Position numbers and translations under genes: made by a program. The notes beneath the pieces were generated by a model. It was not told where the DNA came from, did not search any database, and was given only the letters and a program-made list of their open reading frames with translations. A stretch of DNA of 64,000 nucleotides from the sequence record PP400780; one strand, written 5' to 3'. The number at the start of each line of letters is the position of its first letter. The stretch's first letter is position 1. Shown in pieces: positions 2,185-60,197 of this stretch. The stretch is from Escherichia phage FL18.

Positions 2185-5100
2185 CTAATTTAACCTGTGG
2201 TGGATTCACGGGGTCTCTTGGATTTCCTACATTATCGATTAACCGTTGTTCAACCAAATCTCTAAATCTAGAGAATGTTGTTCCGGACGCATCAAATAAT
2301 GGGCTCATCAGTTTACGTCGTTCCGATGGAAGTTGACCTTGAAATATGGAGTTATTGTTTTCAGCGTTATAATCTTCAGGCAATGGATAATCTTGATCAG
2401 CCATAGGGCCTATTTCATATATCGCTTTACCTGTAATAGGGTCAAACTCAACATTTCCTTGTGGGTCTAATTTAGCCACTCGGTCGGCATATTTAGTCGG
2501 TAATCCAGAATCCCACTTATAGTTTTTGTATTTATTAATAATGGTTTCAACATGTTTAAGTGTTAATCCGGTGTTAATAAACATTGTGAGAAGGGTAATT
2601 GCGATAAATCCAAATCCAACCGGATGAACAAAACGTAATACGTCTGATTTCCAACGAGATGATGGAAGTTTAGATTTAATCTTCATTACGTAGTATGCTC
2701 TACCACGATTTATGTAATCGATGTTGTTCTGAGAAAGCTCTTTACCTTTAATACCACGAACAATTTCACCTTCAAACCCAGGGAGTCTTTCAGCTTTAAC
2801 TTCCTGTCCTTGGATTAAACGTCCTAAGAGGTTGTGAATTGTTACAGTCCATTGTAATTTACCTTTAGAGTAACTTCTCTCGATATACGTCACATTACAA
2901 CGTCCTGTAGCGGTGTATATGGTTTGTCCGACCAAATCTTCTGTCAACGAATCAGATTCAATGATGATATCATATTCGGTCCCGGAACTAGATTCAATTT
3001 CAATTTCAACATCTTCATTATAAAGCACTTTAAACAAGAATTTATATGATGCTTCAGTTCCTTTAGTTGAATAGAAGTCATAACTTCTTGATTCAAAGAA
3101 ACGAGACACTAAATCGCGTTTTTCGGCGTTTAAGTAAATGTTTCGTTTATAAATCTCAGACCATAAATATTCCCACGCATGTTCTTCTCGCGGATATTGA
3201 TTTTTAATAAGATTCAAAAGGTTATTATAATGGGTCCCATAACCGTCAGAAAGATACTGAATATAAGCCTCGCAGAATGCTTCGAAGTTTGTATTATCTA
3301 AAAGATAAGACTCCGGCATCATTGTAGTGAGCAATGGTCGTAAATCTGGGTCTGCAATACCGTTCTCTTCTACAGGAGTCCATGTGGTATCTTTTTCTTG
3401 GTTTTGTAACGATGCTGTTAAGAATATATTAGTAGGCTTCCAAATTATAGAAACATTATCTCTAACACGATAACTAAAATCATAATAAGAAATAATCTCA
3501 CCTGATGATTTATAGAAAATCATGCCGGATGCATATTTTTTAAATCCGGTGAAATCTACGTTAGGCATCACTATTGTACAGTCACCGTCCTTCCAATATT
3601 CATGAACTTCACGGTCTGAAGAACTAAGTGGATGATTCTCAATAACCTTAGTGTAAAGTAAATCAGAATAAATTACAACGGCCTTGTCTGAGTTATTAAT
3701 CCAACATCGAGTACCAGACTTTCTAGAATAACTAAAGAATGGCTCAGCATAGTATTCCATCGGTTGAGGAGTGAACGATTCCCATTGAGAGTCTTCAGTT
3801 GAAATAAATGCCATCATATGATAATGTTTATCAGCCAACCATTCGCGAGGATACTCATATTTAACAGCCCCGATTAAACCGTACTTGACTTGTGTTTTTT
3901 GGTCATCAACAATATCTGATTCTAAAAATTTAAAATTACTAGATGAAATAGATAACTCAACACCATCAGTAGACATACTGGTGTACCCAGGTTCAATACG
4001 ACGGCGTTCTTCTTCAGTATTACCAAACACACGTTTAAATGTGCCGGCATCATGGTCTAGAACGTAAACACCCTTATCAGCAGAATCAACAATAGGAGTG
4101 GTCCTCGGGTCGTCATTAAGATTAACAACTTCACCGATAATCAGTGCAAATATTTTACCACCGACAGAATCCATTTTATAGCAAACTGCCTTAGGGTTAC
4201 CTGTGATGTTAAATGTTTCTTGTTCAAACAAACGTTCGGAATATGTCGGAGATAACGGGTCTGAATCAATAGGGGCATTACTAGTTTTAATAAAACGAAC
4301 TTTATCTCGAGCAGCAACGTATACATAATCGTCATTGCAAACGATAGCTTCTGCAATACGTGATACGTTAGCAGGTAATGATGCGTAGTTACCAAATATT
4401 TCTACATCAAATCCTAAATTTAATTGGTCACCAATTTTAGCAAATGTTATATCTTGAGAACTAAATCTCACATCATCAGCAGACCATCGAACGTCTGTTG
4501 ATTTACGACCGTAAAATAATTTATCGTACCCAAGAACATACGTGGTGTAATCTGTCTGGTAATACACTGTTCTTGATACAGGATACCCTACACGGTCATT
4601 AAACAATTTAACCGATTTCCAGGTTTGTCCCTTATCATTAGAGACTTTAACCACAGGCTGATACCGTTCAAACAAATAAAGAATTCCTTCGGATTCCATC
4701 AAATAAACACGGTTTATATCATGACACACTTGTTGAATCGAACCTTGAATTTCATGATACTCATTTTCGCCAATAATGAAATTTTTAATAGATGAAATAT
4801 CCGCATAAGCAGGGCTAAATTGGAACGATTCATTCATTAGAGCTGCCATTATAGTGTCGTTATTAAAATCGACATAAGCCATGTTGTTATTTGTAAATTT
4901 TTCTCTAATAAAAGTGTTAGCCAATTGCATTTCAATCATATGTTGAAATGTATACGCGTTAGTCTGAAATGATTCAAATATTTCGGTATATACCCAATCG
5001 GATCTCTCGAAGCCTTCGGCGGCAGTTGATACACGAATAATATAAGAAGTTAACGGGTCTAAGCTACTTTCGAACCAGTTGCTATTAGGAGTATATCCTA

Positions 5101-26590: not shown

Positions 26591-26953
26591 ATGAAAGCAT
26601 ATCAAATTCTTGAAGGTGCACATAAAGGCACTATTTATTTTGAAGACGGTACTCAAGCCAGGATTATTGTCTCTAAGACTTTTAAAGAAGACTCTATTGT
26701 AGACCCGGAAATTTTCTACGGTTTGAAGGCCCGTGAAATTGAAATTGAACATCAACCTAAAGTTAAAATTGAAGGTGGTCAACATCTGAACGTTAACGTT
26801 CTGCGTCGTGAAACTCTTGAAGATGCAGTTAAGCATCCGGAAAAATATCCGCAGCTGACCATCCGTGTATCTGGTTATGCAGTTCGCTTTAACTCTCTGA
26901 CTCAGGAACAGCAGCGCGACGTTATCGCTCGTACCTTTACTGAGAGTCTATAA
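26591..26953 (+). CDS. autonomous glycyl radical cofactor (GrcA/YfiD-like)
   Basis: C-terminal about 64 aa nearly identical to recalled E. coli GrcA incl. glycyl-radical motif [13 protein letters not shown]; a T4 homologue (Y06I) is described in the literature. Confidence 0.8.
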
Positions 26954-30851: not shown

Positions 30852-30880
30852 AGCCCCTTCCGAAAGGTTGGGGCTTTTTT
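30852..30880 (+). terminator. intrinsic terminator, cassette copy 2
   Basis: agccccttccgaaaggttggggct + T-run. Confidence 0.6.
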
Positions 30881-30881
30881 G

Positions 30882-30889
30882 TATAAATA
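30882..30889 (+). promoter_or_regulatory. late promoter TATAAATA after terminator
   Basis: exact match. Confidence 0.45.
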
Positions 30890-30913
30890 TCCTTGTAAAC
30901 TAAGAGAGGATAT

Positions 30914-31471
30914 ATGAAATTTTTAAAATATGTAAGTTGGGTTGTTCTTGTTCCTATAGATTGGATCGCAGCGATTTTAGCAATTATTCTAGCACCATTT
31001 GTAGTTCCATTCCATAGTGAAAAAACCGGTAAACTACCTTATGGCTTTGACTGGATGATGACTTACGATAATCCTATCGATGGTGACCGCGGCCATGTTG
31101 AACGTTGGTCTAAAATACGTAAAATTCCTGTTATAGGTAAATATGCTCAACGCGTAGCTTGGCTATGGCGCAACAAAGCATATAATTTTTCTTATCATGT
31201 TTTAGGTCGCGAAGCTTCATCAGAATGGCACTATAAAGGCAACGCCGAAACTAAATCTGGATCTCCTGATCCGGCACATCATGGATATCTTTTAGTTTGG
31301 AACGAGTCTGCATGGGGATTATTCGCTGCTATACCTTATCTTAAGGTTGGTGGTATTACATTTTATCTGCGTGTTTACTGTGGTTGGAAACTTAAGAGTC
31401 TTTTGAGTCGTCCTATTCCACGCGCAATGCTTTCATTCCATATCAACCCTTTACGATATTACAAAAACTAA
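30914..31471 (+). CDS. membrane protein
   Basis: 185 aa, N-terminal TM helix. Confidence 0.5.
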   Translation: MKFLKYVSWVVLVPIDWIAAILAIILAPFVVPFHSEKTGKLPYGFDWMMTYDNPIDGDRGHVERWSKIRKIPVIGKYAQRVAWLWRNKAYNFSYHVLGREASSEWHYKGNAETKSGSPDPAHHGYLLVWNESAWGLFAAIPYLKVGGITFYLRVYCGWKLKSLLSRPIPRAMLSFHINPLRYYKN

Positions 31472-31475
31472 TCAA

Positions 31476-31504
31476 AGCCCCTTCCGAAAGGTTGGGGCTT
31501 TTTT
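31476..31504 (+). terminator. intrinsic terminator, cassette copy 3
   Basis: same hairpin sequence + T-run. Confidence 0.6.
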
Positions 31505-31514
31505 GCATTTAGCA

Positions 31515-31565
31515 GTTTACTTCTCCTCAGGTTGTGTTATAGTAGACCTTACTTACTAGAGGAGA
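31515..31565 (+). promoter_or_regulatory. PeSL
   Basis: GTTTAC + tctcctc ... gaggaga inverted repeat. Confidence 0.5.
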
Positions 31566-31570
31566 ACGTT

Positions 31571-31750
31571 ATGTCACGTAAAGAAAAAATTTCTAAGTTA
31601 ATGTTTTTTATTGAAGAGTACGCTAACGCTGTATCCGATTGGGAAAATGCCCACGGGTGTGAAGACGGTGATATCGATATCAATAAGGCAATGAAAAAGA
31701 TGGCTGATACGCACACTGAATTGCAAATGTATGTTAACGAGATTATGTGA
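31571..31750 (+). CDS. hypothetical protein
   Basis: 59 aa. Confidence 0.4.
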   Translation: MSRKEKISKLMFFIEEYANAVSDWENAHGCEDGDIDINKAMKKMADTHTELQMYVNEIM

Positions 31751-31757
31751 GGATATT

Positions 31758-31964
31758 ATGCTTTACGATTATACTGGAAAATCTGAAGACGGTGTACTTG
31801 AACTTTTACCTGAAAGCGCTGAAGATGATGATATAGTGGTGATGTTTTGTAAAAATGGTCCTGGGGATAAGGGATGGATTTATCTTCGCCAAGAAAATGA
31901 CTTAATTGTTTTGGACCCTAAACAAGTTGAAGAACTTTATCAACATTTAAAATACAATCGGTAG
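31758..31964 (+). CDS. hypothetical protein
   Basis: 68 aa, SD GAGGA. Confidence 0.4.
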   Translation: MLYDYTGKSEDGVLELLPESAEDDDIVVMFCKNGPGDKGWIYLRQENDLIVLDPKQVEELYQHLKYNR

Positions 31965-32003
31965 TTTACATCTTGGTAGGACTACTATAACATAGTCCTA
32001 CCA
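31964..32003 (+). promoter_or_regulatory. PeSL with inverted core (ggtaggactactataacatagtcctacc)
   Basis: same stem as other copies but loop sequence is the reverse complement. Confidence 0.45.
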
Positions 32004-32021
32004 AAACAAATGGAGAACAAA

Positions 32022-32132
32022 ATGAAACTTTTGCTTATTGCTTATGTTATAGTACAATACAATTATCCAATGTTTACGTATAACATGGTAAATGGTGTAA
32101 TGAATCTTATTGAAGCGAGTATGGTAAAATGA
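32022..32132 (+). CDS. very small hydrophobic ORF (36 aa)
   Basis: SD TGGAG; low confidence. Confidence 0.25.
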   Translation: MKLLLIAYVIVQYNYPMFTYNMVNGVMNLIEASMVK

Positions 32133-32308
32133 CACGTGAACAAGCTAATAAATTGATGGACCTTATCCGTGACTTACGTGAAGCCGATTCAGATTTGAAT
32201 GATGTAGCTTATCATGCGGTAAATGATAACGGAGACTTTTATGAAAATCAGGTTGATGCTTGTCAGAATGATTTGGTGAATTTTGTTGAAACTTTAATTG
32301 GTGAATAA
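32129..32308 (+). CDS. small acidic protein (59 aa)
   Basis: ATGA overlap. Confidence 0.35.
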   Translation: MTREQANKLMDLIRDLREADSDLNDVAYHAVNDNGDFYENQVDACQNDLVNFVETLIGE

Positions 32309-32309
32309 T

Positions 32310-32840
32310 ATGAAAACTGTAATTGAAACGACTGAGTTGTTTGGTGATTTATGTATCGAAAAACGTGGTTATGCTTACGTTCTGACACAAGAAGATGATG
32401 CGGTTACTATTCTTCCTATGGAACTGGACAAGATTTTGAAACTCAATCCATCAGGCCATGCATCTGTAATTAACATTGGTGAAGACCTTCAAGTTCGTTT
32501 TTATCACGGACTTTATAGTGGGGTTAATATCGAAACCGAAGATGAATGTTTTTCTATTAATAATTGGAAAACATTTGTCACTAAGGTGAAAGAATTCATG
32601 GAATCTGAAACAGCCAAAAAGGCCAAACTTCAATGGGCTAAATGCCGTAATGCTTTTATTACAAATCAGGACCGCCCTGACTATACAACAGTCCTAGGCG
32701 TTAATCCTTCTTATGAAGATGGTGATGTCATAGTTATTCGCCAAATTGATGACCTTCGTCAACATATCATTACATTAGACAAAGATGAGGCAGTTGCTCT
32801 TAAAGCTTATCTCGATTCTATTATCCCGACTTTGAAATAA
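32310..32840 (+). CDS. hypothetical protein
   Basis: 176 aa. Confidence 0.5.
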   Translation: MKTVIETTELFGDLCIEKRGYAYVLTQEDDAVTILPMELDKILKLNPSGHASVINIGEDLQVRFYHGLYSGVNIETEDECFSINNWKTFVTKVKEFMESETAKKAKLQWAKCRNAFITNQDRPDYTTVLGVNPSYEDGDVIVIRQIDDLRQHIITLDKDEAVALKAYLDSIIPTLK

Positions 32841-32849
32841 GGAATTATT

Positions 32850-33323
32850 ATGATTATCAATGAAAACTCTTGGCACTTTAAAATTTATACCGCGTTTAAT
32901 AGTACATGGAATCGTCCGAAAACGTTGTGTGCTTATTTTTGGAAAACGTTAATCCCAGTATTGGCTGCTTCAATTATTGGATTTGCGATTTTAGCAGCAG
33001 TCACAATCATTGGCCAGGAAATTTTAACTAAATTCTTTGTTTTTAGCAGTCTATGGACATTAGTTCCGGCTTCAATTGGTGTAGGCATTTTAATGGTAGC
33101 AGTCATGGCTTTTATTGCTACCGGGTTGGTAATTGGTCCGTCTTGGTTGTTAGACAAATATAACGACAGAAAATATTATAAAGAAATTGAGCTCATTGCG
33201 CAAAACCAAGAACGAATTAAAAATGGACTTGAGCCTATTGAACGTAAGAAATCATTAATAGGTGAATACCTTAAAGCTCGTAAAGAAAAAGTCTGTCCTA
33301 CTCTTGAATATAAGGCTAAATGA
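32850..33323 (+). CDS. membrane protein
   Basis: 157 aa, two TM segments. Confidence 0.5.
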   Translation: MIINENSWHFKIYTAFNSTWNRPKTLCAYFWKTLIPVLAASIIGFAILAAVTIIGQEILTKFFVFSSLWTLVPASIGVGILMVAVMAFIATGLVIGPSWLLDKYNDRKYYKEIELIAQNQERIKNGLEPIERKKSLIGEYLKARKEKVCPTLEYKAK

Positions 33324-34309
33324 TGAAAACGATTGTTAAGTCTTACTTTGGTAGCCACCTTTATGGAACGTCTACTCCTGAATCTGACGTCGATTTTAAA
33401 GAAATTTATGTCCCTCATGCTCGTGATATCTTGACCGGTAACGTTAAAGAACATATGAGCAAGAACACGAATAACACATCTTCTAAGAACACAAAAGACG
33501 ATGTGGATCATGAGTTGTATAGTCTCAAATATTTCTTTAAACTAGCTGCGGATGGTGAAACCGTCGCATTAGATATGCTTCACACTCCACCAAGTCTAGT
33601 AGTTAAATCTGATTTGCCTGATGTATGGAAGTATATTCAAGATAACAGGTCTCGTTTCTATACTACTAACATGAAATCTTATTTAGGGTATGTCCGTAAG
33701 CAAGCTTCTAAATACGGTGTCAAGGGTTCTCGACTGGCTGTTCTTCGTCAAGCCCTTAAACGTTCTAATGAATGGGGACAATACTTTGATAATGGTGCAG
33801 TAATTCGTTTATCACATATGAAGAATGTTCTGCCTGTAGGTGAATTTGCTTCGTGGGTTGAAACCGAAAACGAGAAAACAGGTAAGCAAACATTCTATAA
33901 TCTGTTAGACCGTAAATTCCAAGATACGTTAACCAATAAAGAGTTCAATGCCATCCTGGTTAAACTGGAAGAGAACTATGGCGAACGTGCTCGTAAGGCA
34001 GAAGCCAACGAAGGTATTGACTGGAAAGCATTGAGTCATGCATGTCGTGGTGGACTTCAATTATTGGAAATTTACAAAACCGGCGACCTGGTTTACCCAC
34101 TTCAGGATGCTCCATTTATTCTCGATGTTAAGCTTGGTAAACATACGTTTAAAACTGTACAAGAATTCCTAGAAGATATCGTTGACCAAGTTGAACATGC
34201 GTCAGAACAAGCCGCTAAGAACGGTATGCAACAAAAAGTAGATATGAGTTTCTGGGATGACTTCCTTGAACAAGTCTACTTAGAAAACCACAATTCGTAC
34301 TATAAATGA
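33320..34309 (+). CDS. nucleotidyltransferase-fold protein (Pol-beta superfamily)
   Basis: motif GSHLYGTSTPESDVDF (GS-x10-DxD) and downstream acidic DHE; 329 aa. Confidence 0.5.
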   Translation: MMKTIVKSYFGSHLYGTSTPESDVDFKEIYVPHARDILTGNVKEHMSKNTNNTSSKNTKDDVDHELYSLKYFFKLAADGETVALDMLHTPPSLVVKSDLPDVWKYIQDNRSRFYTTNMKSYLGYVRKQASKYGVKGSRLAVLRQALKRSNEWGQYFDNGAVIRLSHMKNVLPVGEFASWVETENEKTGKQTFYNLLDRKFQDTLTNKEFNAILVKLEENYGERARKAEANEGIDWKALSHACRGGLQLLEIYKTGDLVYPLQDAPFILDVKLGKHTFKTVQEFLEDIVDQVEHASEQAAKNGMQQKVDMSFWDDFLEQVYLENHNSYYK

Positions 34310-37811: not shown

Positions 37812-38765
37812 ATGACACGTTCACATTACATTGATTATTTTGCAGGTCTTATCGCTAACGTTCATGCCCAACGTGCTTCTGGTTCATTAGGATTTGATGT
37901 TCCACACCGAGTTGTAGTAAGTGGTATTCTTCGCGATTTTGGTACATACACAGGCCAAGAAAATCATATCTGTAAAGATACTCAGAATGCGTATTCTCAT
38001 TCATTAGGGACACTGCTTCAATGGTTCAAACGTTCTCGTTTATTATCTTCGACTGTAGCTCGCGATAACATTAAAAACTTTATGAAGCCGAGCTTTATTA
38101 AATCTGCGACATCTAAAACCGATTTGGTTGAATTCACTATTGTTAATGATGTTAAAAAGACTCATTTGGCTGATTGGTTATCTACCATTCCTGAAACTAA
38201 ATTTGCTGATAAATTTGCTTGTGAATTCAATAACCAAGTGAATATGCTTTTTAAACATTCTCGTAAATTATTTACAGGTGGCGATGGTCGTACAAATAAA
38301 GTTCATGCTAAAGATTGGGTTACTGCAGTATTCAAACCAACCGGTAATGGTAACGCATCATTGTCAATTGATATCCAGGTTCCTTATTACTACTCACGTA
38401 ATCTCGGTACCATGAAAGCCGAAGAAATTAATAAGCGCAACAAAACCGTTCGTTCGCTGTCTTATAAACTTTGTACGATGTTACAGATTATGGATGTTGT
38501 TGAAATGTTCGACGAAACCGAAGATAACGGTTCAATGTTATTCAGTTCTAATATTCGAATTAAGCTGAAGAACCCTAATACATATAAACCTAAGCCTATT
38601 AAAGAACCTAAAGTAGAAAAAGTTGATAACTTAAGAGAAGAACGCGAATATCTCAAATCTCGTCTGAAAGAAGTCGAAGCCCAGATTGCAGAACAGACTA
38701 AATCGTTAAAAGCTCTGAATGCGAAAGCGGATGGTTTACGAAATGCCATTGAGGTATTGAAATGA
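37812..38765 (+). CDS. hypothetical protein with C-terminal coiled coil
   Basis: 317 aa. Confidence 0.5.
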   Translation: MTRSHYIDYFAGLIANVHAQRASGSLGFDVPHRVVVSGILRDFGTYTGQENHICKDTQNAYSHSLGTLLQWFKRSRLLSSTVARDNIKNFMKPSFIKSATSKTDLVEFTIVNDVKKTHLADWLSTIPETKFADKFACEFNNQVNMLFKHSRKLFTGGDGRTNKVHAKDWVTAVFKPTGNGNASLSIDIQVPYYYSRNLGTMKAEEINKRNKTVRSLSYKLCTMLQIMDVVEMFDETEDNGSMLFSSNIRIKLKNPNTYKPKPIKEPKVEKVDNLREEREYLKSRLKEVEAQIAEQTKSLKALNAKADGLRNAIEVLK

Positions 38766-39076
38766 AAAAGCGTCTATTAGAAGACATTGCAGCTTCAAGT
38801 AATTCCAGTTTAATTAAAATTATTATGGCCGGTGAAGAAGACGATCTGGAAATGCGCGGAAAGATTCATGGTTGTGATGATTATAGCAGCCCTATTAATT
38901 GGAATTCTGTAATGGTCATGGTTGAACGCCGCGAACGTGCTTCTAAAAACGTTCCTAATTGCCCTGAATGTGGAACTGAACAGGTGCAATTGGTCCATTG
39001 GCAGACTAATAATCTTCGTTATAAATGTCGCCATTGTAAACACCGATTTGACCGAGAAGAAAATGACCAAGCGTAA
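38762..39076 (+). CDS. zinc-ribbon protein
   Basis: CPECG...CRHCKH; 104 aa. Confidence 0.5.
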
Positions 39077-40031: not shown

Positions 40032-40202
40032 ATGCAAGTTAAATTATTGTACCGTTTATTAAAAAATGGCAAGCATGATTGGTATTTGCTTATTAAAACC
40101 GATCAGAATTTTTTCTCCGGACACCCATTTACAGTTCGTCCTACTAAACGTCAGCTTCGCAAAGCTAAACGTTCTCATCGTAACTTTTATAACGTTTACT
40201 AA
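40032..40202 (+). CDS. small basic protein
   Basis: 56 aa from ATG 40032. Confidence 0.35.
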   Translation: MQVKLLYRLLKNGKHDWYLLIKTDQNFFSGHPFTVRPTKRQLRKAKRSHRNFYNVY

Positions 40203-40204
40203 AT

Positions 40205-40212
40205 TATAAATA
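40205..40212 (+). promoter_or_regulatory. late promoter TATAAATA upstream of gene 49
   Basis: exact match 30 nt upstream of gene 49 ATG, followed by hairpin. Confidence 0.45.
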
Positions 40213-40241
40213 CCCTTATCTATTTAAGGTAAGGGTTTATC

Positions 40242-40715
40242 ATGTTATTATCAGGCGCAAAATATAAAGAAGAAAAACAAAAATTTTATGATGCACAGAA
40301 TGGTAAGTGTCCTATTTGCCACCGTGAATTAGACCCTGATGTTCAAGGTAACCATCTTGACCACGACCACGAATTAAACGGGCCAAAAGCCGGTAGAGTT
40401 CGTGGATTACTCTGTAATCTGTGCAACGCAGCAGAAGGTCAAATGAAGCATAAGTTCAACCGTTCCGGTCTTAAAGGACGTGGTGTCGACTACCTCGAAT
40501 GGCTTGAAGCTCTTCTTGTTTATTTGAAACAAGATTATTCTGATAATAATATCCATCCTAATTTTGTTCCAGACAAAACTAAAGAGTTCTCAAGACTAGG
40601 TAAAGAGGAAATGATGGCTGAGATGCTTCAAAGAGGATTTGAATATAATGAATCTGACACCAAAACACAGTTAATAACTTCATTTAAGAAGCAGCTTAGA
40701 AAGAGTTTAAAATGA
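40242..40715 (+). CDS. 49: endonuclease VII (Holliday junction resolvase)
   Basis: 157 aa; zinc motif CPIC...C..C and HLDHDHE; strong similarity to recalled T4 gp49. Confidence 0.85.
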   Translation: MLLSGAKYKEEKQKFYDAQNGKCPICHRELDPDVQGNHLDHDHELNGPKAGRVRGLLCNLCNAAEGQMKHKFNRSGLKGRGVDYLEWLEALLVYLKQDYSDNNIHPNFVPDKTKEFSRLGKEEMMAEMLQRGFEYNESDTKTQLITSFKKQLRKSLK

Positions 40716-41380
40716 ATGTAGTATATAAACTATCATTTATTAGTAGAATTAATGCTAAAACCCCGCCATATTATTATATTGGAAGTAAAACCAATTGCAC
40801 TTTTGACGGAACGAATATTATTGATAAAAATGGTAAATTTTATTATTCGTCTTCGTCATCTTCCGAATTTCAAAAAGCTTTGTTGAAAGAAACACCGAAA
40901 GTTGAAATATTATATTTTCAATTAGTCGGAGATGAACAAATAACTAGCATTGAAGCTGAATTTCAAAAGAATATAGAAAAAGATATATGGAATAAAGAGT
41001 ATTTTAATTTAGCATATGCTAATGGTCAATTTACAACGTACGGTGTTTCTCCTTCTAAAGAAACTAGAGAAAAGCAATCAATAACCATGATTAAAAGAAA
41101 TCGTAATAAAGGTAAAAATCATGGATTTTATGGAAAGCATCATACTAATTTAGCCAGAAAGAAAATATCAGAAGCTTCTAAAAAATACTGGAAAGAAAAT
41201 CCACATCATGGATTTTCGCACACAAAGGAAGCTAAAATTAAAATTGGAATTTCATCTTCTATCAGGCATAAAGGAAGTGGAAATCCGATGTACGGCGTAA
41301 AACCTTGGAAAACTCCTAGCGTTGTTCCATGGAATTTAGGTAAAATGAAAGAAATGGTAAAACGAGTAAAACATGCATAG
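40712..41380 (+). CDS. GIY-YIG family endonuclease (short form)
   Basis: VYKL...YYYIGSK plus NUMOD3-like GKNHGFYGKHHT motifs; 222 aa. Confidence 0.55.
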   Translation: MNVVYKLSFISRINAKTPPYYYIGSKTNCTFDGTNIIDKNGKFYYSSSSSSEFQKALLKETPKVEILYFQLVGDEQITSIEAEFQKNIEKDIWNKEYFNLAYANGQFTTYGVSPSKETREKQSITMIKRNRNKGKNHGFYGKHHTNLARKKISEASKKYWKENPHHGFSHTKEAKIKIGISSSIRHKGSGNPMYGVKPWKTPSVVPWNLGKMKEMVKRVKHA

Positions 41381-42203
41381 GTATTATATAATTTATAAAA
41401 TAACAAATATAATTAATTCAAAGGAATATATCGGTGCGCATAGCACCGATAACATAAATGATGGTTATATGGGATCAGGAACATTGATTCGTGCCGCTTT
41501 ATTAAAATATGGTAGAAAAAATTTTAATAAAGAAATTTTACATGTTTTTGATAATGAAAAACAAATGTATGATAAAGAAGCTGAACTCGTAACCGAAGAG
41601 TATTGTCTAAAAGAAAATACATATAATATTAAACCTGGTGGAAAAGGTGGAACTGCCTATGAACAGACACTTGAACATCGCCGCAAAAATAGTTTAGCAA
41701 ATAAAGGTAAAAAGAGAACAGAAGAAACTAAAATAGCTATTTCACGTGCTTTAAAGAAATATAAACGTACGCCAGAGCATCAAGCAAATTTAAATAAAGC
41801 CGTAAGCATAGCTATGAAGCGAAAAGATGTTAGAAGTAAATTAGCTGGAGAGCGGTCTGAGAAAGATAAATTACCTATATCAAACGGTGTTAAAAAATAT
41901 TACAATTCTTTGAGTGAAGAAGAACGCGAACTTCATCGCAAGCGAATTATTGAAGGTAAAAAGAATTCTCCCATGTCATTGGAATCTAGACAAAAGCTTT
42001 CAAAAGCTTTAAAAGGACTTCAAGTTGGTTCAAAAAATCCAATGTATGGAAAAATTTCTCCAACTAGCAAAACCGTTTCAGTTGACGGTATTAAATATGA
42101 TTCAATTAAAAAGTGCTCAAATGCCATAAAAGTTTCTAGACATCTTATACTAAAACGCTGTAATTCTACTGATGAAGCTTGGAAAAATTGGATATTATTA
42201 TGA
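41373..42203 (+). CDS. GIY-YIG homing endonuclease
   Basis: YIIYKITN...EYIGAH...GSG, three NUMOD3-like repeats, C-terminal HTH; 276 aa. Confidence 0.65.
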   Translation: MHRYYIIYKITNIINSKEYIGAHSTDNINDGYMGSGTLIRAALLKYGRKNFNKEILHVFDNEKQMYDKEAELVTEEYCLKENTYNIKPGGKGGTAYEQTLEHRRKNSLANKGKKRTEETKIAISRALKKYKRTPEHQANLNKAVSIAMKRKDVRSKLAGERSEKDKLPISNGVKKYYNSLSEEERELHRKRIIEGKKNSPMSLESRQKLSKALKGLQVGSKNPMYGKISPTSKTVSVDGIKYDSIKKCSNAIKVSRHLILKRCNSTDEAWKNWILL

Positions 42204-42670
42204 ATTATGACAGAATATACCCGTGTTGCTTTGTGAATGGCCCTGGATGCAGGGTCGTTCTTTTCGTTACAGGTTGTTTGCATAAATGCGAAGGGTGTTA
42301 TAATAAATCAACATGGAATGCTAGAAATGGTGTTCCATTCACTGGTGAAACACTAGAACAATTAATTGAATGTTTGAATAATGATTATATAGAAGGATTG
42401 ACTATAACCGGAGGTGACCCTCTTTATCCTGATAACAGAGACGTGATTCACTCTGTGGTTCAAACTATTAAAAATCTTTATCCCAATAAAAGCATTTGGT
42501 TGTGGACAGGATATAAGTTTGAAGATATTAAACAACTAGAAATGCTTAAATATGTTGATGTTATTATTGATGGGAAGTATGAGAAAAATCTTCCGACTAA
42601 AAAGCTGTGGCGAGGATCAGATAATCAGCGACTTTGGTCAAATACCGATGTGGTGTGGAAACATGATTAA
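42203..42670 (+). CDS. nrdG: anaerobic ribonucleotide reductase activating protein (radical SAM)
   Basis: CLHKCEGCYN cluster; 155 aa. Confidence 0.75.
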   Translation, partial: NYDRIYPCCFVNGPGCRVVLFVTGCLHKCEGCYNKSTWNARNGVPFTGETLEQLIECLNNDYIEGLTITGGDPLYPDNRDVIHSVVQTIKNLYPNKSIWLWTGYKFEDIKQLEMLKYVDVIIDGKYEKNLPTKKLWRGSDNQRLWSNTDVVWKHD

Positions 42671-42785
42671 ATTGAATTATATTATGGATACTATAAATGA
42701 TATGATTTTTCATTTTGGTCCAGAATTTTATTCGCAGTATAGTTTAGTGCTTATCAATGCTTGGTTAATCAATTAAGGGTAAAAT

Positions 42786-43001
42786 ATGTATAAATTTCGT
42801 AAAGGTTTAGCTGATTTTCTTACAACTGTAACATTCTTTCTGTTTATGGCAGTTGGAGCTATTTTCCTTATTCCTTTTATTGCTATATTTTTCGTGATTA
42901 GTTTGATTTCTCCAGAAAAAGGACTATCTTCTAGTGAGTTCAATGAGCGTCTGGATAAAATTACTAACAAGCTGAATGCGGTTCTTGATAAAAAGGATTA
43001 A
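42786..43001 (+). CDS. small membrane protein
   Basis: 71 aa, TM helix. Confidence 0.45.
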   Translation: MYKFRKGLADFLTTVTFFLFMAVGAIFLIPFIAIFFVISLISPEKGLSSSEFNERLDKITNKLNAVLDKKD

Positions 43002-43003
43002 TT

Positions 43004-43315
43004 ATGATTAGTTTTGAGCGGTATGTAGTAGAGAGTTGGAATGGTTTTGATATGTTCGGTAATGACTATTATTTCTATGAATGTAGTCTGAACCCAAGCT
43101 TCTGGGCTGGACGTGAACAAGACCTCGAAGAAATCAACGCTCGTGCCGATTTGTTAGGTGAACTGCCTACGGTTTATTTTACCTTTGATGAATCCGGCTT
43201 CGTTATCCAGGTTTATTTTCCTGAAGAAAACTCTGGTGAGGATTCTGTTAATCCTCCTTATTGGGCTTACCAAGGAATTATTTCTCGTGGAACAAAACTC
43301 GAACTTAAAGAATAA
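43004..43315 (+). CDS. hypothetical protein
   Basis: 103 aa. Confidence 0.45.
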   Translation: MISFERYVVESWNGFDMFGNDYYFYECSLNPSFWAGREQDLEEINARADLLGELPTVYFTFDESGFVIQVYFPEENSGEDSVNPPYWAYQGIISRGTKLELKE

Positions 43316-43610
43316 GATTGAAGTCTATGGAATTCCAGATGAAGTAGGTCGTTGTCCTGGATGTCAATCAGTTACAAAACTTCTAAAGGAGCTCAATGCT
43401 CCTTTTACTTTCTATAAAGTTCTTACAAATAATGGTAAGATTGAGTATGATCGTCCACTGATTGTATCTCTTGCTAAACGCGCTGGATTCACATCTCTTA
43501 ACATTCGTTATCCAGTCATTTTCATTAATGATTCTAGACAAAAGAATATTAAACACTTCAAAGAAACTCTCATTTCACTTGGATATGATAGAGATATCAT
43601 AGAAGATTAA
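43277..43610 (+). CDS. glutaredoxin-like protein (CPGC), start codon uncertain
   Basis: KIEVYGIPDEVGRCPGCQ resembles NrdC fold; no in-frame ATG near the domain start. Confidence 0.4.
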
Positions 43611-43614
43611 GACG

Positions 43615-43634
43615 GGCCCTCTGGGCCTTTCTTT
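43615..43634 (+). terminator. hairpin ggccc-tct-gggcc + T-rich
   Basis: seen in sequence. Confidence 0.4.
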
Positions 43635-43708
43635 CTCACATTCTGTATATTACCATTCTAAGCTATCGTTCCTTTCTTATCATTCCCTAAAATATTTTTC
43701 ACAAAGTT

Positions 43709-43738
43709 GTTTACAACGAGCTCAAACCGTGGTATTAT
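43709..43738 (+). promoter_or_regulatory. early promoter (GTTTACA 17 nt TATTAT)
   Basis: seen in sequence. Confidence 0.45.
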
Positions 43739-43768
43739 TAACATATGAATTGCCTTTGAGGATTTGAT

Positions 43769-43951
43769 ATGGTTGTGGTTGATAAAGAAATTAAAAAGGG
43801 ACAGTATTATCTTATTAATGGTAATGCTGTTCGCGTTACCTACGTAAATGGTTATGATGTTTATTATCTTATACTTAAGTTACATAAACACATGATTTGT
43901 GACCGTGCTGTATTTAGTTCAGTTGCTAAGGAAATTAAACTCCATGGGTAA
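43769..43951 (+). CDS. hypothetical protein
   Basis: 60 aa. Confidence 0.4.
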   Translation: MVVVDKEIKKGQYYLINGNAVRVTYVNGYDVYYLILKLHKHMICDRAVFSSVAKEIKLHG

Positions 43952-44237
43952 AACGTATCGTCGTAAAGACTTAAAAGTGCGTGATTATGACTATTTCGGA
44001 AAGCGTAAAGCTCCTGACGGTGTAAGTCATAAAGATATGGTTGAAAACATTTTTCGCTCAGATAAATGGCGTAGAATGAAAGGTATTGATTCAGAAGTTA
44101 AAGATGAGTTAAATCGTCAATTACGCGGTGAAGTAAGAAAGTTGAAAAAATCAGTTTACATTGACGATGATTTTGATTATAATACTTCTCAACGAGTTGC
44201 TAAACGTAAATCAAACGAGTGTTATCGTTACAGCTGA
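43944..44237 (+). CDS. basic hypothetical protein
   Basis: 97 aa from ATG 43944. Confidence 0.4.
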   Translation: MGKTYRRKDLKVRDYDYFGKRKAPDGVSHKDMVENIFRSDKWRRMKGIDSEVKDELNRQLRGEVRKLKKSVYIDDDFDYNTSQRVAKRKSNECYRYS

Positions 44238-44244
44238 GGAAAAT

Positions 44245-44376
44245 ATGAATATCAAACGCATGCTTTTTAAGCAAGGGCTATATACTTTAAATGTTACTCC
44301 AAAAGGCGATACAACTAAGTGGTCAGTAAATGACTGGATTAAATTTATTGATGAAAACGGTAATTGGGAAATTTAA
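44245..44376 (+). CDS. small hypothetical protein (43 aa)
   Basis: SD GAGGA. Confidence 0.3.
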   Translation: MNIKRMLFKQGLYTLNVTPKGDTTKWSVNDWIKFIDENGNWEI

Positions 44377-44577
44377 ATGAATCCTGAATCTAAATTATCG
44401 CAGCGAATTGCTGAAGAACGCGCCAAATTTTTCCAGAACATGAAACACAATGGTATTGAGGATGAAGTTTTTCTAAATTGGTTCTGGAATAATAAGTATG
44501 CAGCATGTGAAGGAGCTTTGTCATTGTCAGTCGCAATGATGTACGAAGGCTGGAAGGGTGCCAAAAAGTTTAGCTAA
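44377..44577 (+). CDS. hypothetical protein
   Basis: 66 aa. Confidence 0.4.
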   Translation: MNPESKLSQRIAEERAKFFQNMKHNGIEDEVFLNWFWNNKYAACEGALSLSVAMMYEGWKGAKKFS

Positions 44578-44595
44578 GGGCTTCGGCCCTTTTTG
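44578..44595 (+). terminator. intrinsic terminator (gggc-ttcg-gccc + TTTTT)
   Basis: seen in sequence. Confidence 0.55.
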
Positions 44596-44630
44596 GATAA
44601 TAAAATTTTTAACGTAATTGAGGATAATGT

Positions 44631-44957
44631 ATGACTATTCAAATTAAAAACGCCATCAATTCTTACGCATATGATAAAGTAGTTTCTTTGCTAGAAAAAG
44701 GCGATATTGTAACTCCTCAAATTTTGGATAAATGGGAAAAAGAGCTTCATCAAATGATGAAACAGAATGATCAGAAGATTGGACGCAACACTGTACGTGA
44801 ATTGTTGGTTCAATATATCTTGTCAGAATTTGATGTTAAAGCTTTTGGTGTAGAATCTAAAGCTTATCAAAAGCATGAAATTTCCGATAAAACTATTCGT
44901 CGCATGAAAAATCAACGCAAGAAAAAAATTGCAGACCTGAAAATTACTAAGGTATAA
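44631..44957 (+). CDS. hypothetical protein
   Basis: 108 aa. Confidence 0.5.
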   Translation: MTIQIKNAINSYAYDKVVSLLEKGDIVTPQILDKWEKELHQMMKQNDQKIGRNTVRELLVQYILSEFDVKAFGVESKAYQKHEISDKTIRRMKNQRKKKIADLKITKV

Positions 44958-44959
44958 TT

Positions 44960-45175
44960 ATGAACGAAGCTCTTATTAACGATTTGCGTCTTGCTGGATA
45001 TGAAGTAAATACAAATGGCATTGGTTTAACTCAAATTGAAGGAAACGGATTCATCCTTGAGTATGAATTTAGCCAATGGTGGTTATATGCCAATTACGGC
45101 GAATTGATTGAATATGTTGACCAATTTGATTCACTAGATGCAGCTCTTGAAGCGGCTAAGTTGATGAATGTATGA
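44960..45175 (+). CDS. hypothetical protein
   Basis: 71 aa. Confidence 0.45.
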   Translation: MNEALINDLRLAGYEVNTNGIGLTQIEGNGFILEYEFSQWWLYANYGELIEYVDQFDSLDAALEAAKLMNV

Positions 45176-45441
45176 AATTTATTAATATTTCTATTACTAT
45201 TGAAAATTATGGCATTTTCTATGTTGACCAATACATGAAAATTTCATTTTTCCCAAATAAGACTGGTGTTGGATATTGGGAAAGTCATGTTTCTGAATTA
45301 AATGAAAGTGAATATGTTAGCACACATGAAAAGTTTTTAGACTTTTTATATCATGCAGATTTAACTAGTCATTATATAGATATTCATGAATTTAAAAAGA
45401 TGATGGAGAAAGTGTTCCAAGCATACTGTTTACTTAGATAA
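45172..45441 (+). CDS. hypothetical protein
   Basis: 89 aa. Confidence 0.45.
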   Translation: MKFINISITIENYGIFYVDQYMKISFFPNKTGVGYWESHVSELNESEYVSTHEKFLDFLYHADLTSHYIDIHEFKKMMEKVFQAYCLLR

Positions 45442-45453
45442 CTGATATCCTCT

Positions 45454-45489
45454 ATGCTTTAAGATAGATCTTCAAATATTATGATATAA
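45454..45489 (+). promoter_or_regulatory. possible middle promoter (TGCTTTA, TATTAT/TATAAT) upstream of gene 55
   Basis: spacing non-ideal. Confidence 0.25.
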
Positions 45490-45519
45490 TAGATCTATGA
45501 ATTGAGCTAAGAGGTGAAA

Positions 45520-46077
45520 ATGTCAGAAACTAAGCCTAAATATAATTACGTAAACAATAAAGAGCTTTTACAAGCTATTATTGATTGGAAAACAGAATTA
45601 GCAAATAATAAAGACCCAAATAAAGTAGTTCGTCAGAATGATACTATCGGATTAGCCATTATGCTTATTGCAGAAGGCTTATCTAAACGTTTCAACTTTT
45701 CAGGATACACCCAGTCTTGGAAACAAGAGATGATTGCAGATGGGATTGAAGCCTCTATTAAGGGACTTCATAATTTCGACGAAACTAAGTACAATAACCC
45801 GCATGCATACATAACTCGAGCTTGTTTTAATGCTTTTGTCCAACGTATCAAAAAAGAACGTAAGGAAGTTGCAAAGAAATATAGTTACTTCGTTCATAAT
45901 GTCTACGACAGTCATGACGATGATATGGTAGCGTTGGTAGATGAAACGTTTATTCAAGACATCTACGATAAAATGACGCATTATGAAGAATCCGCTTATA
46001 AAGCTCCTGGGGCTGAAAAGAAGGAAGTTGTTAGCGATTCGCCTAGTTTGGATTTTTTATATGAGGACGACAATTGA
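45520..46077 (+). CDS. 55: late-transcription sigma factor gp55
   Basis: 185 aa, same length as T4 gp55; synteny. Confidence 0.75.
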
Positions 46078-59811: not shown

Positions 59812-60197
59812 TGCACCGTGTAGAAAACATGCTTAATCTTTGTTTTGATGTCGATGATTGTATAACAGAGTGGAATAACAATCGTGATTACGTGAACTTC
59901 AAACCTGACGTCGAAATGGTGTCTGCCATTAATGCCCTGTATGATGCAGGGCATACCATAACGCTTTACACTGCTCGCGGTATGAAGTCAGTAGGTCCTG
60001 GACGTATAGCAATTGACATTCTCCCAAGTCTGATTCAGAACTTGGAAAACATTGGTTTGAAGTACCATAATTTGCTAACACATAAACCAGTATATGATTG
60101 GATTATCGACGACAAAGCTATGCGTCCTGACGAATTCAAAGCTCTTATGAATAAAGGCGAATTCGAAACATTTAAATCGTATAAACCGAATCTATAA
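59811..60197 (+). CDS. HAD-superfamily phosphatase-like protein
   Basis: motif I FDVDDCIT; 128 aa. Confidence 0.5.
   Translation: MHRVENMLNLCFDVDDCITEWNNNRDYVNFKPDVEMVSAINALYDAGHTITLYTARGMKSVGPGRIAIDILPSLIQNLENIGLKYHNLLTHKPVYDWIIDDKAMRPDEFKALMNKGEFETFKSYKPNL

Follow-up and report, generated by a model that had tools for sequence, protein, structure and literature searches.

What became of nrdD, the gene for the catalytic subunit of the class III (anaerobic) ribonucleotide reductase (RNR), in Escherichia phage FL18 (PP400780), and did the homing endonuclease genes beside its former position take part in the loss? The window analyzed here is a stretch of 64 kb from this genome, corresponding to ~38% of ~168 kb when placed by position relative to Mosigvirus JM17 (PP400779). 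Within it, gene 49 is followed by open reading frames (ORFs) of 222 and 276 aa and by nrdG, the gene for the class III RNR activase. A previous sequence-only reading had reported these four ORFs, all of which are present where it had placed them, and had proposed that two GIY-YIG endonuclease genes occupy the place of nrdD. Comparison with related phages supports a different view, to which a probability of about 0.8 is assigned: the T-even anaerobic RNR region is present here as a deletion allele that is recent, specific to this strain, and the product of a short-repeat deletion. This view is carried by the breakpoints, the in-frame fusion that they created, the removal of the radical glycine along with every catalytic part of NrdD, the mosaic ancestry of the surrounding DNA, and a repeat that is restricted to the nrdD allele linked to the endonuclease gene segH.

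The nrdD remnant and the deletion junction

A megablast search with the locus matched 892 phage records; the related records with nrdD that were listed or inspected all have it between gene 49 and nrdG. The order in phage Pu-Krd-SF6 (PQ759886) is gene 49, a homing endonuclease gene referred to here as HE1 (273 aa), nrdD (605 aa), a 276-aa homing endonuclease gene (segH), and nrdG. JM17 carries gene 49, HE1, nrdD, and nrdG, and the order in PP01, T6, and moha is nrdD, segH, nrdG. With HE1 located 5' and segH 3' of nrdD in relatives, the endonuclease genes flank nrdD and have not replaced it. The notion that they occupy its place therefore has to be abandoned; Pu-Krd-SF6 has the complete two-endonuclease arrangement, and the window differs from it by one deletion of 1,961 bp.

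To assess the absence of nrdD, two phage NrdD proteins were compared by tblastn with the six-frame translation of the window. The sole significant match consists of residues 584-605, identical (100%) to the NrdD of Pu-Krd-SF6 and encoded at 41312-41377, and nothing else in the six frames scored below E 0.07. That nrdD is missing from the locus and from the window is thus confirmed. The accompanying statement of the sequence-only reading, that no ORF in the window resembles the ~600-aa NrdD, is correct for the full-length gene and overlooked this 22-codon 3' remnant, which sits inside the 222-aa ORF and shares a frame with the HE1 part of it. The glycyl-radical motif RRTCGYLG, found directly upstream of the remnant in relatives, has been deleted, and the window encodes no protein with the hallmarks of a class III RNR, namely a NrdD of ~600 aa with a C-terminal RxCGY motif. 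As the radical glycine and all of NrdD upstream of it are lost, no class III reductase can come from this locus. Judged by its gene content, the phage would be devoid of class III RNR activity and would rely on its own aerobic RNR and on host enzymes. In T4 genetics, nrdD is dispensable for aerobic laboratory growth. It had also been suggested that the two ORFs might be intron-encoded within a split nrdD. Such an interrupted gene is ruled out in the window, where tblastn recovered no nrdD exons in any frame and an Rfam search of 38-46 kb at E values up to 1 found no group I intron.

Aligned to Pu-Krd-SF6, the window resolves into two blocks, 40201-41319 and 41311-43700, with 9 bp in common and with 1,961 bp of the reference left out between them. 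The shared 9 bp form a direct repeat, AACTCCTAG, whose copies in the reconstructed parent are separated by 1,961 bp. For the comparisons of the junction, the left parent was JM17 and the right parent was PP01, EC128, T6, or SF6. The left copy of the repeat covers HE1 codons ~201-203 (KTPR), and the right copy lies directly 3' of the glycyl-radical motif of nrdD, in the context RRTCGYLG-TPS. Next to it, on the upstream side, stands CTTGGAA with an offset of 2 nt, which brings the overall match to 14/16. Removed are HE1 codons 203-273 and nrdD codons 1-583/585, with the last 20-22 residues of NrdD kept. The fusion ORF stops at the native nrdD stop codon and preserves the 8-nt stop/start overlap with segH that is found in relatives.

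That a complete nrdD has moved to another part of the genome, beyond the window, is highly improbable. The window leaves ample room for a relocated copy, being ~38% of the genome, yet the nrdD 3' end has stayed at its native site, fused in frame to HE1, which is the signature of a deletion and not of a translocation, and related records that retain nrdD place it, as far as they were listed or inspected, between gene 49 and nrdG. The features of the locus are collected in Table 1.

Table 1. Features of the deletion locus and of the surrounding patch in the FL18 window (positions are those of the 64-kb stretch)
Feature	Position	Strand	Evidence
Gene 49 (endonuclease VII), intact	40242..40715	+	Pfam Endonuclease_7 E 1e-19; EndoVII dimerisation domain (Endonuc-dimeris) E 9e-32; DNA 99% identical to JM17
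Fusion ORF, 222 aa: HE1 residues 1-202 and NrdD residues 586-605, in frame	40712..41380	+	
Deletion junction: one remaining copy of the 9-bp direct repeat AACTCCTAG	41311..41319		BLAST segment overlap, three-way alignments
nrdD remnant: final 22 codons TPSVVPWNLGKMKEMVKRVKHA and stop	41312..41380	+	tblastn, 3'-end alignment with T6, PP01, SF6, JM17
segH, free-standing GIY-YIG homing endonuclease gene, intact	41373..42203	+	identity to T6 and PP01 SegH, domain matches
nrdG, class III RNR radical-SAM activase, intact, 156 aa	42200..42670	+	TIGR02491, Pfam Fer4_12
Tequatrovirus-type patch, ~4.4 kb, in Mosigvirus (JM17-like) backbone	41311..45728		sliding identity
Right-hand patch crossover inside gene 55 (45520-46077)	45726..45729		informative sites

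Mosaic ancestry and the origin of the allele

The DNA on the two sides of the junction has different ancestries. Two stretches of the window, 22.5 kb to 41319 and ~45.7 kb to 64 kb, share 99% identity with JM17, apart from a divergent segment at ~30.9-34.3 kb, and the sliding identity to JM17 is at least 99% left of 41319 and right of about 45.8 kb. From 41311 to ~45.7 kb the identity to JM17 is 65-94%, with part of this interval unalignable and with one 200-bp window identical to both parents. The same interval is 91-100% identical (mostly at least 95%) to Tequatrovirus PP01, and matches SHFML-26 and PP01 in a single piece at 97-98%. JM17 thus shares the backbone on both sides and lacks the Tequatrovirus-type patch, which comprises the nrdD tail, segH, nrdG, 55.8, nrdH, 55.x, and the 5' part of gene 55. 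The left boundary of the patch is exactly the deletion junction. The right boundary falls inside gene 55, where the last PP01-type site (45726) and the first JM17-type site (45729) are 3 nt apart in a stretch in which the parents differ every few bases. With the parental type switching within 3 nt, the right crossover needed very little perfect homology.

The distribution of the repeat orders the events. AACTCCTAG occurs in HE1 of JM17 and in the nrdD tails of PP01, EC128, T6, and SF6. The nrdD tail of JM17 (GGGAAATCCGAAC, NPNERGF...) is without it, and only the segH-linked tail (GGAACTCCTAGCG, TPSVVPW...) carries it. With the repeat confined to the segH-linked nrdD allele, the deletion accompanied or followed the arrival of segH and did not precede it. 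The segH-carrying regions of other T-even phages (Sandegren, Nord and Sjoberg 2005, NAR 33:6203) provide the closest comparison: in T6, RB3, LZ2, and PP01, as in the window, segH lies directly 5' of nrdG and overlaps the nrdD stop by 8 nt, and T6 and PP01 have the same variant nrdD tail, TPSVVPWNLGKMKEMVKRVKHA. The window differs from these in that nrdD upstream of the tail is gone and what is left of it has been joined to a different endonuclease gene. Further, the right endpoint of the deletion falls within ~4 bp of the point at which segH-positive and segH-negative nrdD alleles diverge.

A history that accommodates these observations would begin with a parent of the order gene 49, HE1, nrdD, segH, nrdG. 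From a Tequatrovirus, its segH cassette would have entered a JM17-like Mosigvirus, accompanied by the segH-linked version of the 22 terminal nrdD codons and by ~4 kb of DNA lying downstream, and recombination or replication slippage between the two copies of AACTCCTAG would then have removed the 1,961 bp. The outcome is the in-frame fusion of HE1 (1-202) to the NrdD tail, with the native nrdD stop kept and segH and nrdG intact. Recombination or slippage between short direct repeats is a classical route to deletions in T4. The deletion would have occurred during or after the acquisition of segH, and may have been stimulated by a break made by SegH.

Other phages have lost nrdD at the same locus in different ways. 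In vB_EcoM_G53 (MK327943) nrdD is lost as in the window, but nrdG is lost as well and an unrelated ORF of 41 codons is found in their stead (3204-3329 of the compared stretch, between gene 49 and gene 55.8). In CJY920 (PQ349265, a record flagged UNVERIFIED) nrdD was lost via an 11-bp overlap, short as in the window, and codons 1-63 of nrdG were lost with it, so that nt 28 of nrdD is joined to codon 64 of nrdG (2507-2541 of the compared stretch). Only the window, among these three, retains a complete nrdG and both endonuclease genes. The independent losses of nrdD in G53 and CJY920 indicate that the region tolerates such deletions. A metagenomic T-even contig (Logan ERR4622921, 974-3599) has HE1 in ORFs of 40, 138, and 81 aa and nrdD split into ORFs of 226 aa and 370 aa, which points to decay of this locus or to frameshifts introduced by sequencing.

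Several observations weigh against a recent short-repeat deletion as the full account. The reconstructed parent contains 117 direct repeats of at least 9 nt, so the length of the repeat alone fails to explain the choice of this pair and was rejected as the reason for it. The allele is known from one assembled record, and an assembly error or a minority deletion variant is possible; the window covers 64 kb of the ~168-kb genome. In nrdG, one private substitution is too little to show relaxed selection. None of the 50,697 INPHARED phage records spans the junction (301-bp query), a 26-mer across it has no exact match in IMG/VR, the JGI metagenomes, or the GTDB genomes, and an exact look-up of the fusion protein in a gene index returned nothing. 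A homologue search among 5.8 billion proteins recovered only the cluster of full-length, 273-aa HE1 and a fragmentary 138-aa variant, with no fusion protein. The allele is thus without a second occurrence in these collections and without independent confirmation.

It is unlikely, all the same, that the deletion is absent from the biological genome, whether through an artefact of assembly or because a deletion mutant had overrun or contaminated the sequenced lysate. The uniqueness of the allele among so many phage records and in three large contig collections would fit such an origin, and the dispensability of nrdD in aerobic growth would let deletion mutants build up in stocks. A repeat of 9 bp is, however, far too short to make an assembler lose 2 kb, normal flanks surround a clean junction that keeps the reading frame, and comparable deletions are found in other deposited genomes. 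A deletion mutant that swept a stock would, moreover, still be a real deletion produced by the same mechanism.

A more specific possibility, held tentatively, is that the invasion of segH itself deleted nrdD. SegH reportedly cuts near its own gene and also cuts DNA that contains segH. In a mixed infection of a segH-positive Tequatrovirus and a JM17-like Mosigvirus, SegH would have made a double-strand break near the 3' end of nrdD; the downstream side would have undergone normal repair by homeologous recombination, with its crossover in gene 55, and the upstream end, after resection, would have been joined through the 9-bp microhomology in HE1, so that aberrant homing accounted for both patch and deletion in one step. 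A SegH break at the divergence point of the alleles, resected upstream and joined by microhomology, would explain why the junction is at once the left edge of the patch and, to within ~4 bp, the point of divergence of segH-positive and segH-negative nrdD. The presence of the repeat in the donor allele only, and the availability of well over a hundred other repeats of at least 9 nt, which makes the site look chosen, also point in this direction. On the other side, normal homing with a left crossover anywhere in the deleted 1.96 kb, followed by a later deletion, gives an identical sequence, and the coincidence of endpoints was noticed post hoc.

There is a partial precedent in T6, in which a microhomology-linked rearrangement beside segB has been reported: segB and tRNA-Tyr are tandemly amplified under selection by a defence system, with an endpoint at microhomology (PMC13096335). 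That case resembles the window in having an endpoint at short homology in the 3' part of a GIY-YIG seg-type gene and a truncated endonuclease C-terminus, and differs in being a tandem amplification under defence selection, whereas the window has a deletion with no evident selection (PMC13096335). The suggestion of the sequence-only reading that homing endonuclease activity displaced nrdD is borne out as to the loss of the gene, while the link to an endonuclease is plausible and circumstantial, based on a repeat in the segH-linked allele and a junction that is the left edge of the patch.

Two further departures between the window and JM17 should be noted. At 30879-34307 an unalignable gap (30879-31476) is followed by 95% identity up to 34307, and this segment is probably another recombination patch. 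JM17 also has an extra GIY-YIG homing endonuclease gene of ~720 bp (38196-38957 of the compared JM17 stretch), absent at 59815-59836 of the window, which represents another presence/absence polymorphism in an otherwise 99% identical backbone.

The endonucleases and the activase left at the locus

Gene 49 is the upstream neighbour of the nrdD-deletion locus. The 222-aa ORF that follows it is a truncated HE1. Full-length HE1 has 273 aa and is found between gene 49 and nrdD in all 49 phage records that carry it, and residues 1-202 in the window are identical to those of JM17. The sequence-only reading had assigned both ORFs to the GIY-YIG endonucleases, and this assignment stands for both: SegH belongs there by identity to the characterized SegH of T6, and HE1 by its family residues, PHROG match, and structural model, though the Pfam GIY-YIG profile does not match HE1. 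HE1 is a free-standing GIY-YIG endonuclease with a NUMOD3 linker and matches PHROG 7504 (homing endonuclease) at E 1.7e-28. Residues Y5, Y22, G24, E81, and N99 are invariant in a 27-sequence alignment of the HE1 family, which includes proteins bearing PF01541, and residues 1-100 are modelled with predicted local distance difference test (pLDDT) scores of 85-97. The 222-aa ORF thus has the alpha/beta fold with conserved Tyr, Tyr-x-Gly, Glu, and Asn that defines the superfamily. The sequence profiles gave less: TIGR01453 matched HE1 at just E 5.6e-5, a PDB sequence search with HE1 gave no match, and a counterpart of the conserved Arg (I-TevI R27) was not identified in HE1.

What the fusion removed is the C-terminal part of this protein. 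Approximately 71 HE1 residues (203-273), which follow the last NUMOD3 motif, are missing and 20 NrdD residues take their place, such that the 222-aa ORF has no C-terminal module after the last NUMOD3 motif of the kind found in I-TevI-type enzymes. The equivalent segment of SegH has a weak match to the I-TevI DNA-binding domain. Judging from SegH and I-TevI, the truncated HE1 would be without its C-terminal DNA-binding (targeting) module and probably no longer acts as a site-specific nuclease.

The 276-aa ORF is SegH, with 270/276 residues identical to SegH of T6 (AY262137) and 275/276 to SegH of PP01. Its domain matches comprise NUMOD3, weak matches to the I-TevI DNA-binding domain and to the SegE GIY-YIG domain, and TIGR01453 at E 3e-13. 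Its position is that expected of segH, directly 3' of the nrdD stop and directly 5' of nrdG, with no intron.

The next gene, nrdG, had been given a start at 42203 by the sequence-only reading; the ORF itself is confirmed, and comparison with relatives places the ATG 3 nt upstream, at 42200. NrdG passes the NCBIfam equivalog model TIGR02491 with 197.6 bits (cut-off 126.1) and matches Pfam Fer4_12 at E 4.5e-49. It has the features of a class III RNR activase, a radical-SAM protein with a CxxxCxxC motif, which here reads CLHKCEGC. Its catalytic partner is absent within the window. The view of nrdG as an orphan activase gene is accordingly upheld, the gene being intact by TIGR02491 and nrdD being gone from the locus. 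From its nearest relative, EC128, nrdG differs at 4/471 nt (2 synonymous and 2 non-synonymous differences), and the substitution G151V is not present in the four relatives compared; so small a divergence agrees with a recent event. Relaxed selection on nrdG was considered and set aside, four differences from the nearest relative being too few to judge. The gene is best read as a stranded passenger, which would be functionless and would have had no time yet to decay. Inside the 5' part of nrdG, at 42235-42260 (+), there is a terminator-like hairpin with a stem of 11 pairs and a T-run after it. In a promoter and terminator scan of the region the counts were no different from those in shuffled controls, and the hairpin is probably due to chance.

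Could nrdG have been kept for another client? Such a client might be the host NrdD or a small glycyl-radical protein encoded in the window, and the sequence-only reading had proposed the latter. An ORF of the GrcA/T4 Y06I type at 26591-26953 (+) encodes 120 aa with a PFL-type Gly_radical domain (PF01228, E 4e-18) and the motif RVSGYAV, which contains the RVSGY characteristic of the small GrcA proteins; it shares domain and motif with T4 Y06I and E. coli GrcA (YfiD) and reaches 156 bits with TIGR04365, just below the cut-off of 170. The existence of this protein, and an intact nrdG with all cluster cysteines present, speak for such a role. The evidence otherwise makes it quite unlikely, and for the GrcA-like protein the proposal finds no support. 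The GrcA-like gene lies 13.6 kb from the locus, is conserved with or without nrdD and nrdG, and is unlinked to the deletion: it is present in JM17 beside nrdD and nrdG, and is kept at 97% identity in G53, which is without nrdD and nrdG at megablast sensitivity. T4 Y06I is reportedly activated by the host PFL activase (PMC8683613). NrdG also scores far higher with the NrdG equivalog model than with the model for PFL activases (197.6 vs 51.7 bits), and with a deletion that looks recent, an intact nrdG needs no selective reason. The recent loss of nrdD by short-repeat deletion, with nrdG left behind, remains the preferred explanation.

Meaning for T-even phages

The allele described here is new and the type of event that produced it is ordinary. 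T-even phages are well known both for short-repeat deletions and for mosaicism near endonuclease genes, and the current understanding of these processes is unchanged; the link to SegH activity is neat, unproven, and circumstantial. There are direct consequences for annotation, in that the 222-aa ORF should be described as a truncated endonuclease fused to an nrdD remnant and nrdG as an orphan, and anaerobic ribonucleotide reduction should not be listed among the capacities of the phage. In the context of phage therapy and gut ecology, the lack of a class III RNR may make a T-even phage a poorer replicator in anoxic hosts.

For the biology of homing endonucleases, the breakpoints, resolved to the base pair, tie together the arrival of segH, a 4.4-kb tract transferred across genera, and the loss of the host gene beside segH. 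It is possible, if rather less than probable, that the junction is the scar of failed homing between phage genera, in which SegH would have destroyed both a neighbouring endonuclease and the host gene in a single step. Should this be the case, a SegH cleavage site is predicted at the GYLG codons, and the locus would be a natural record of the invasion of a free-standing endonuclease causing gene loss, beyond gene conversion.

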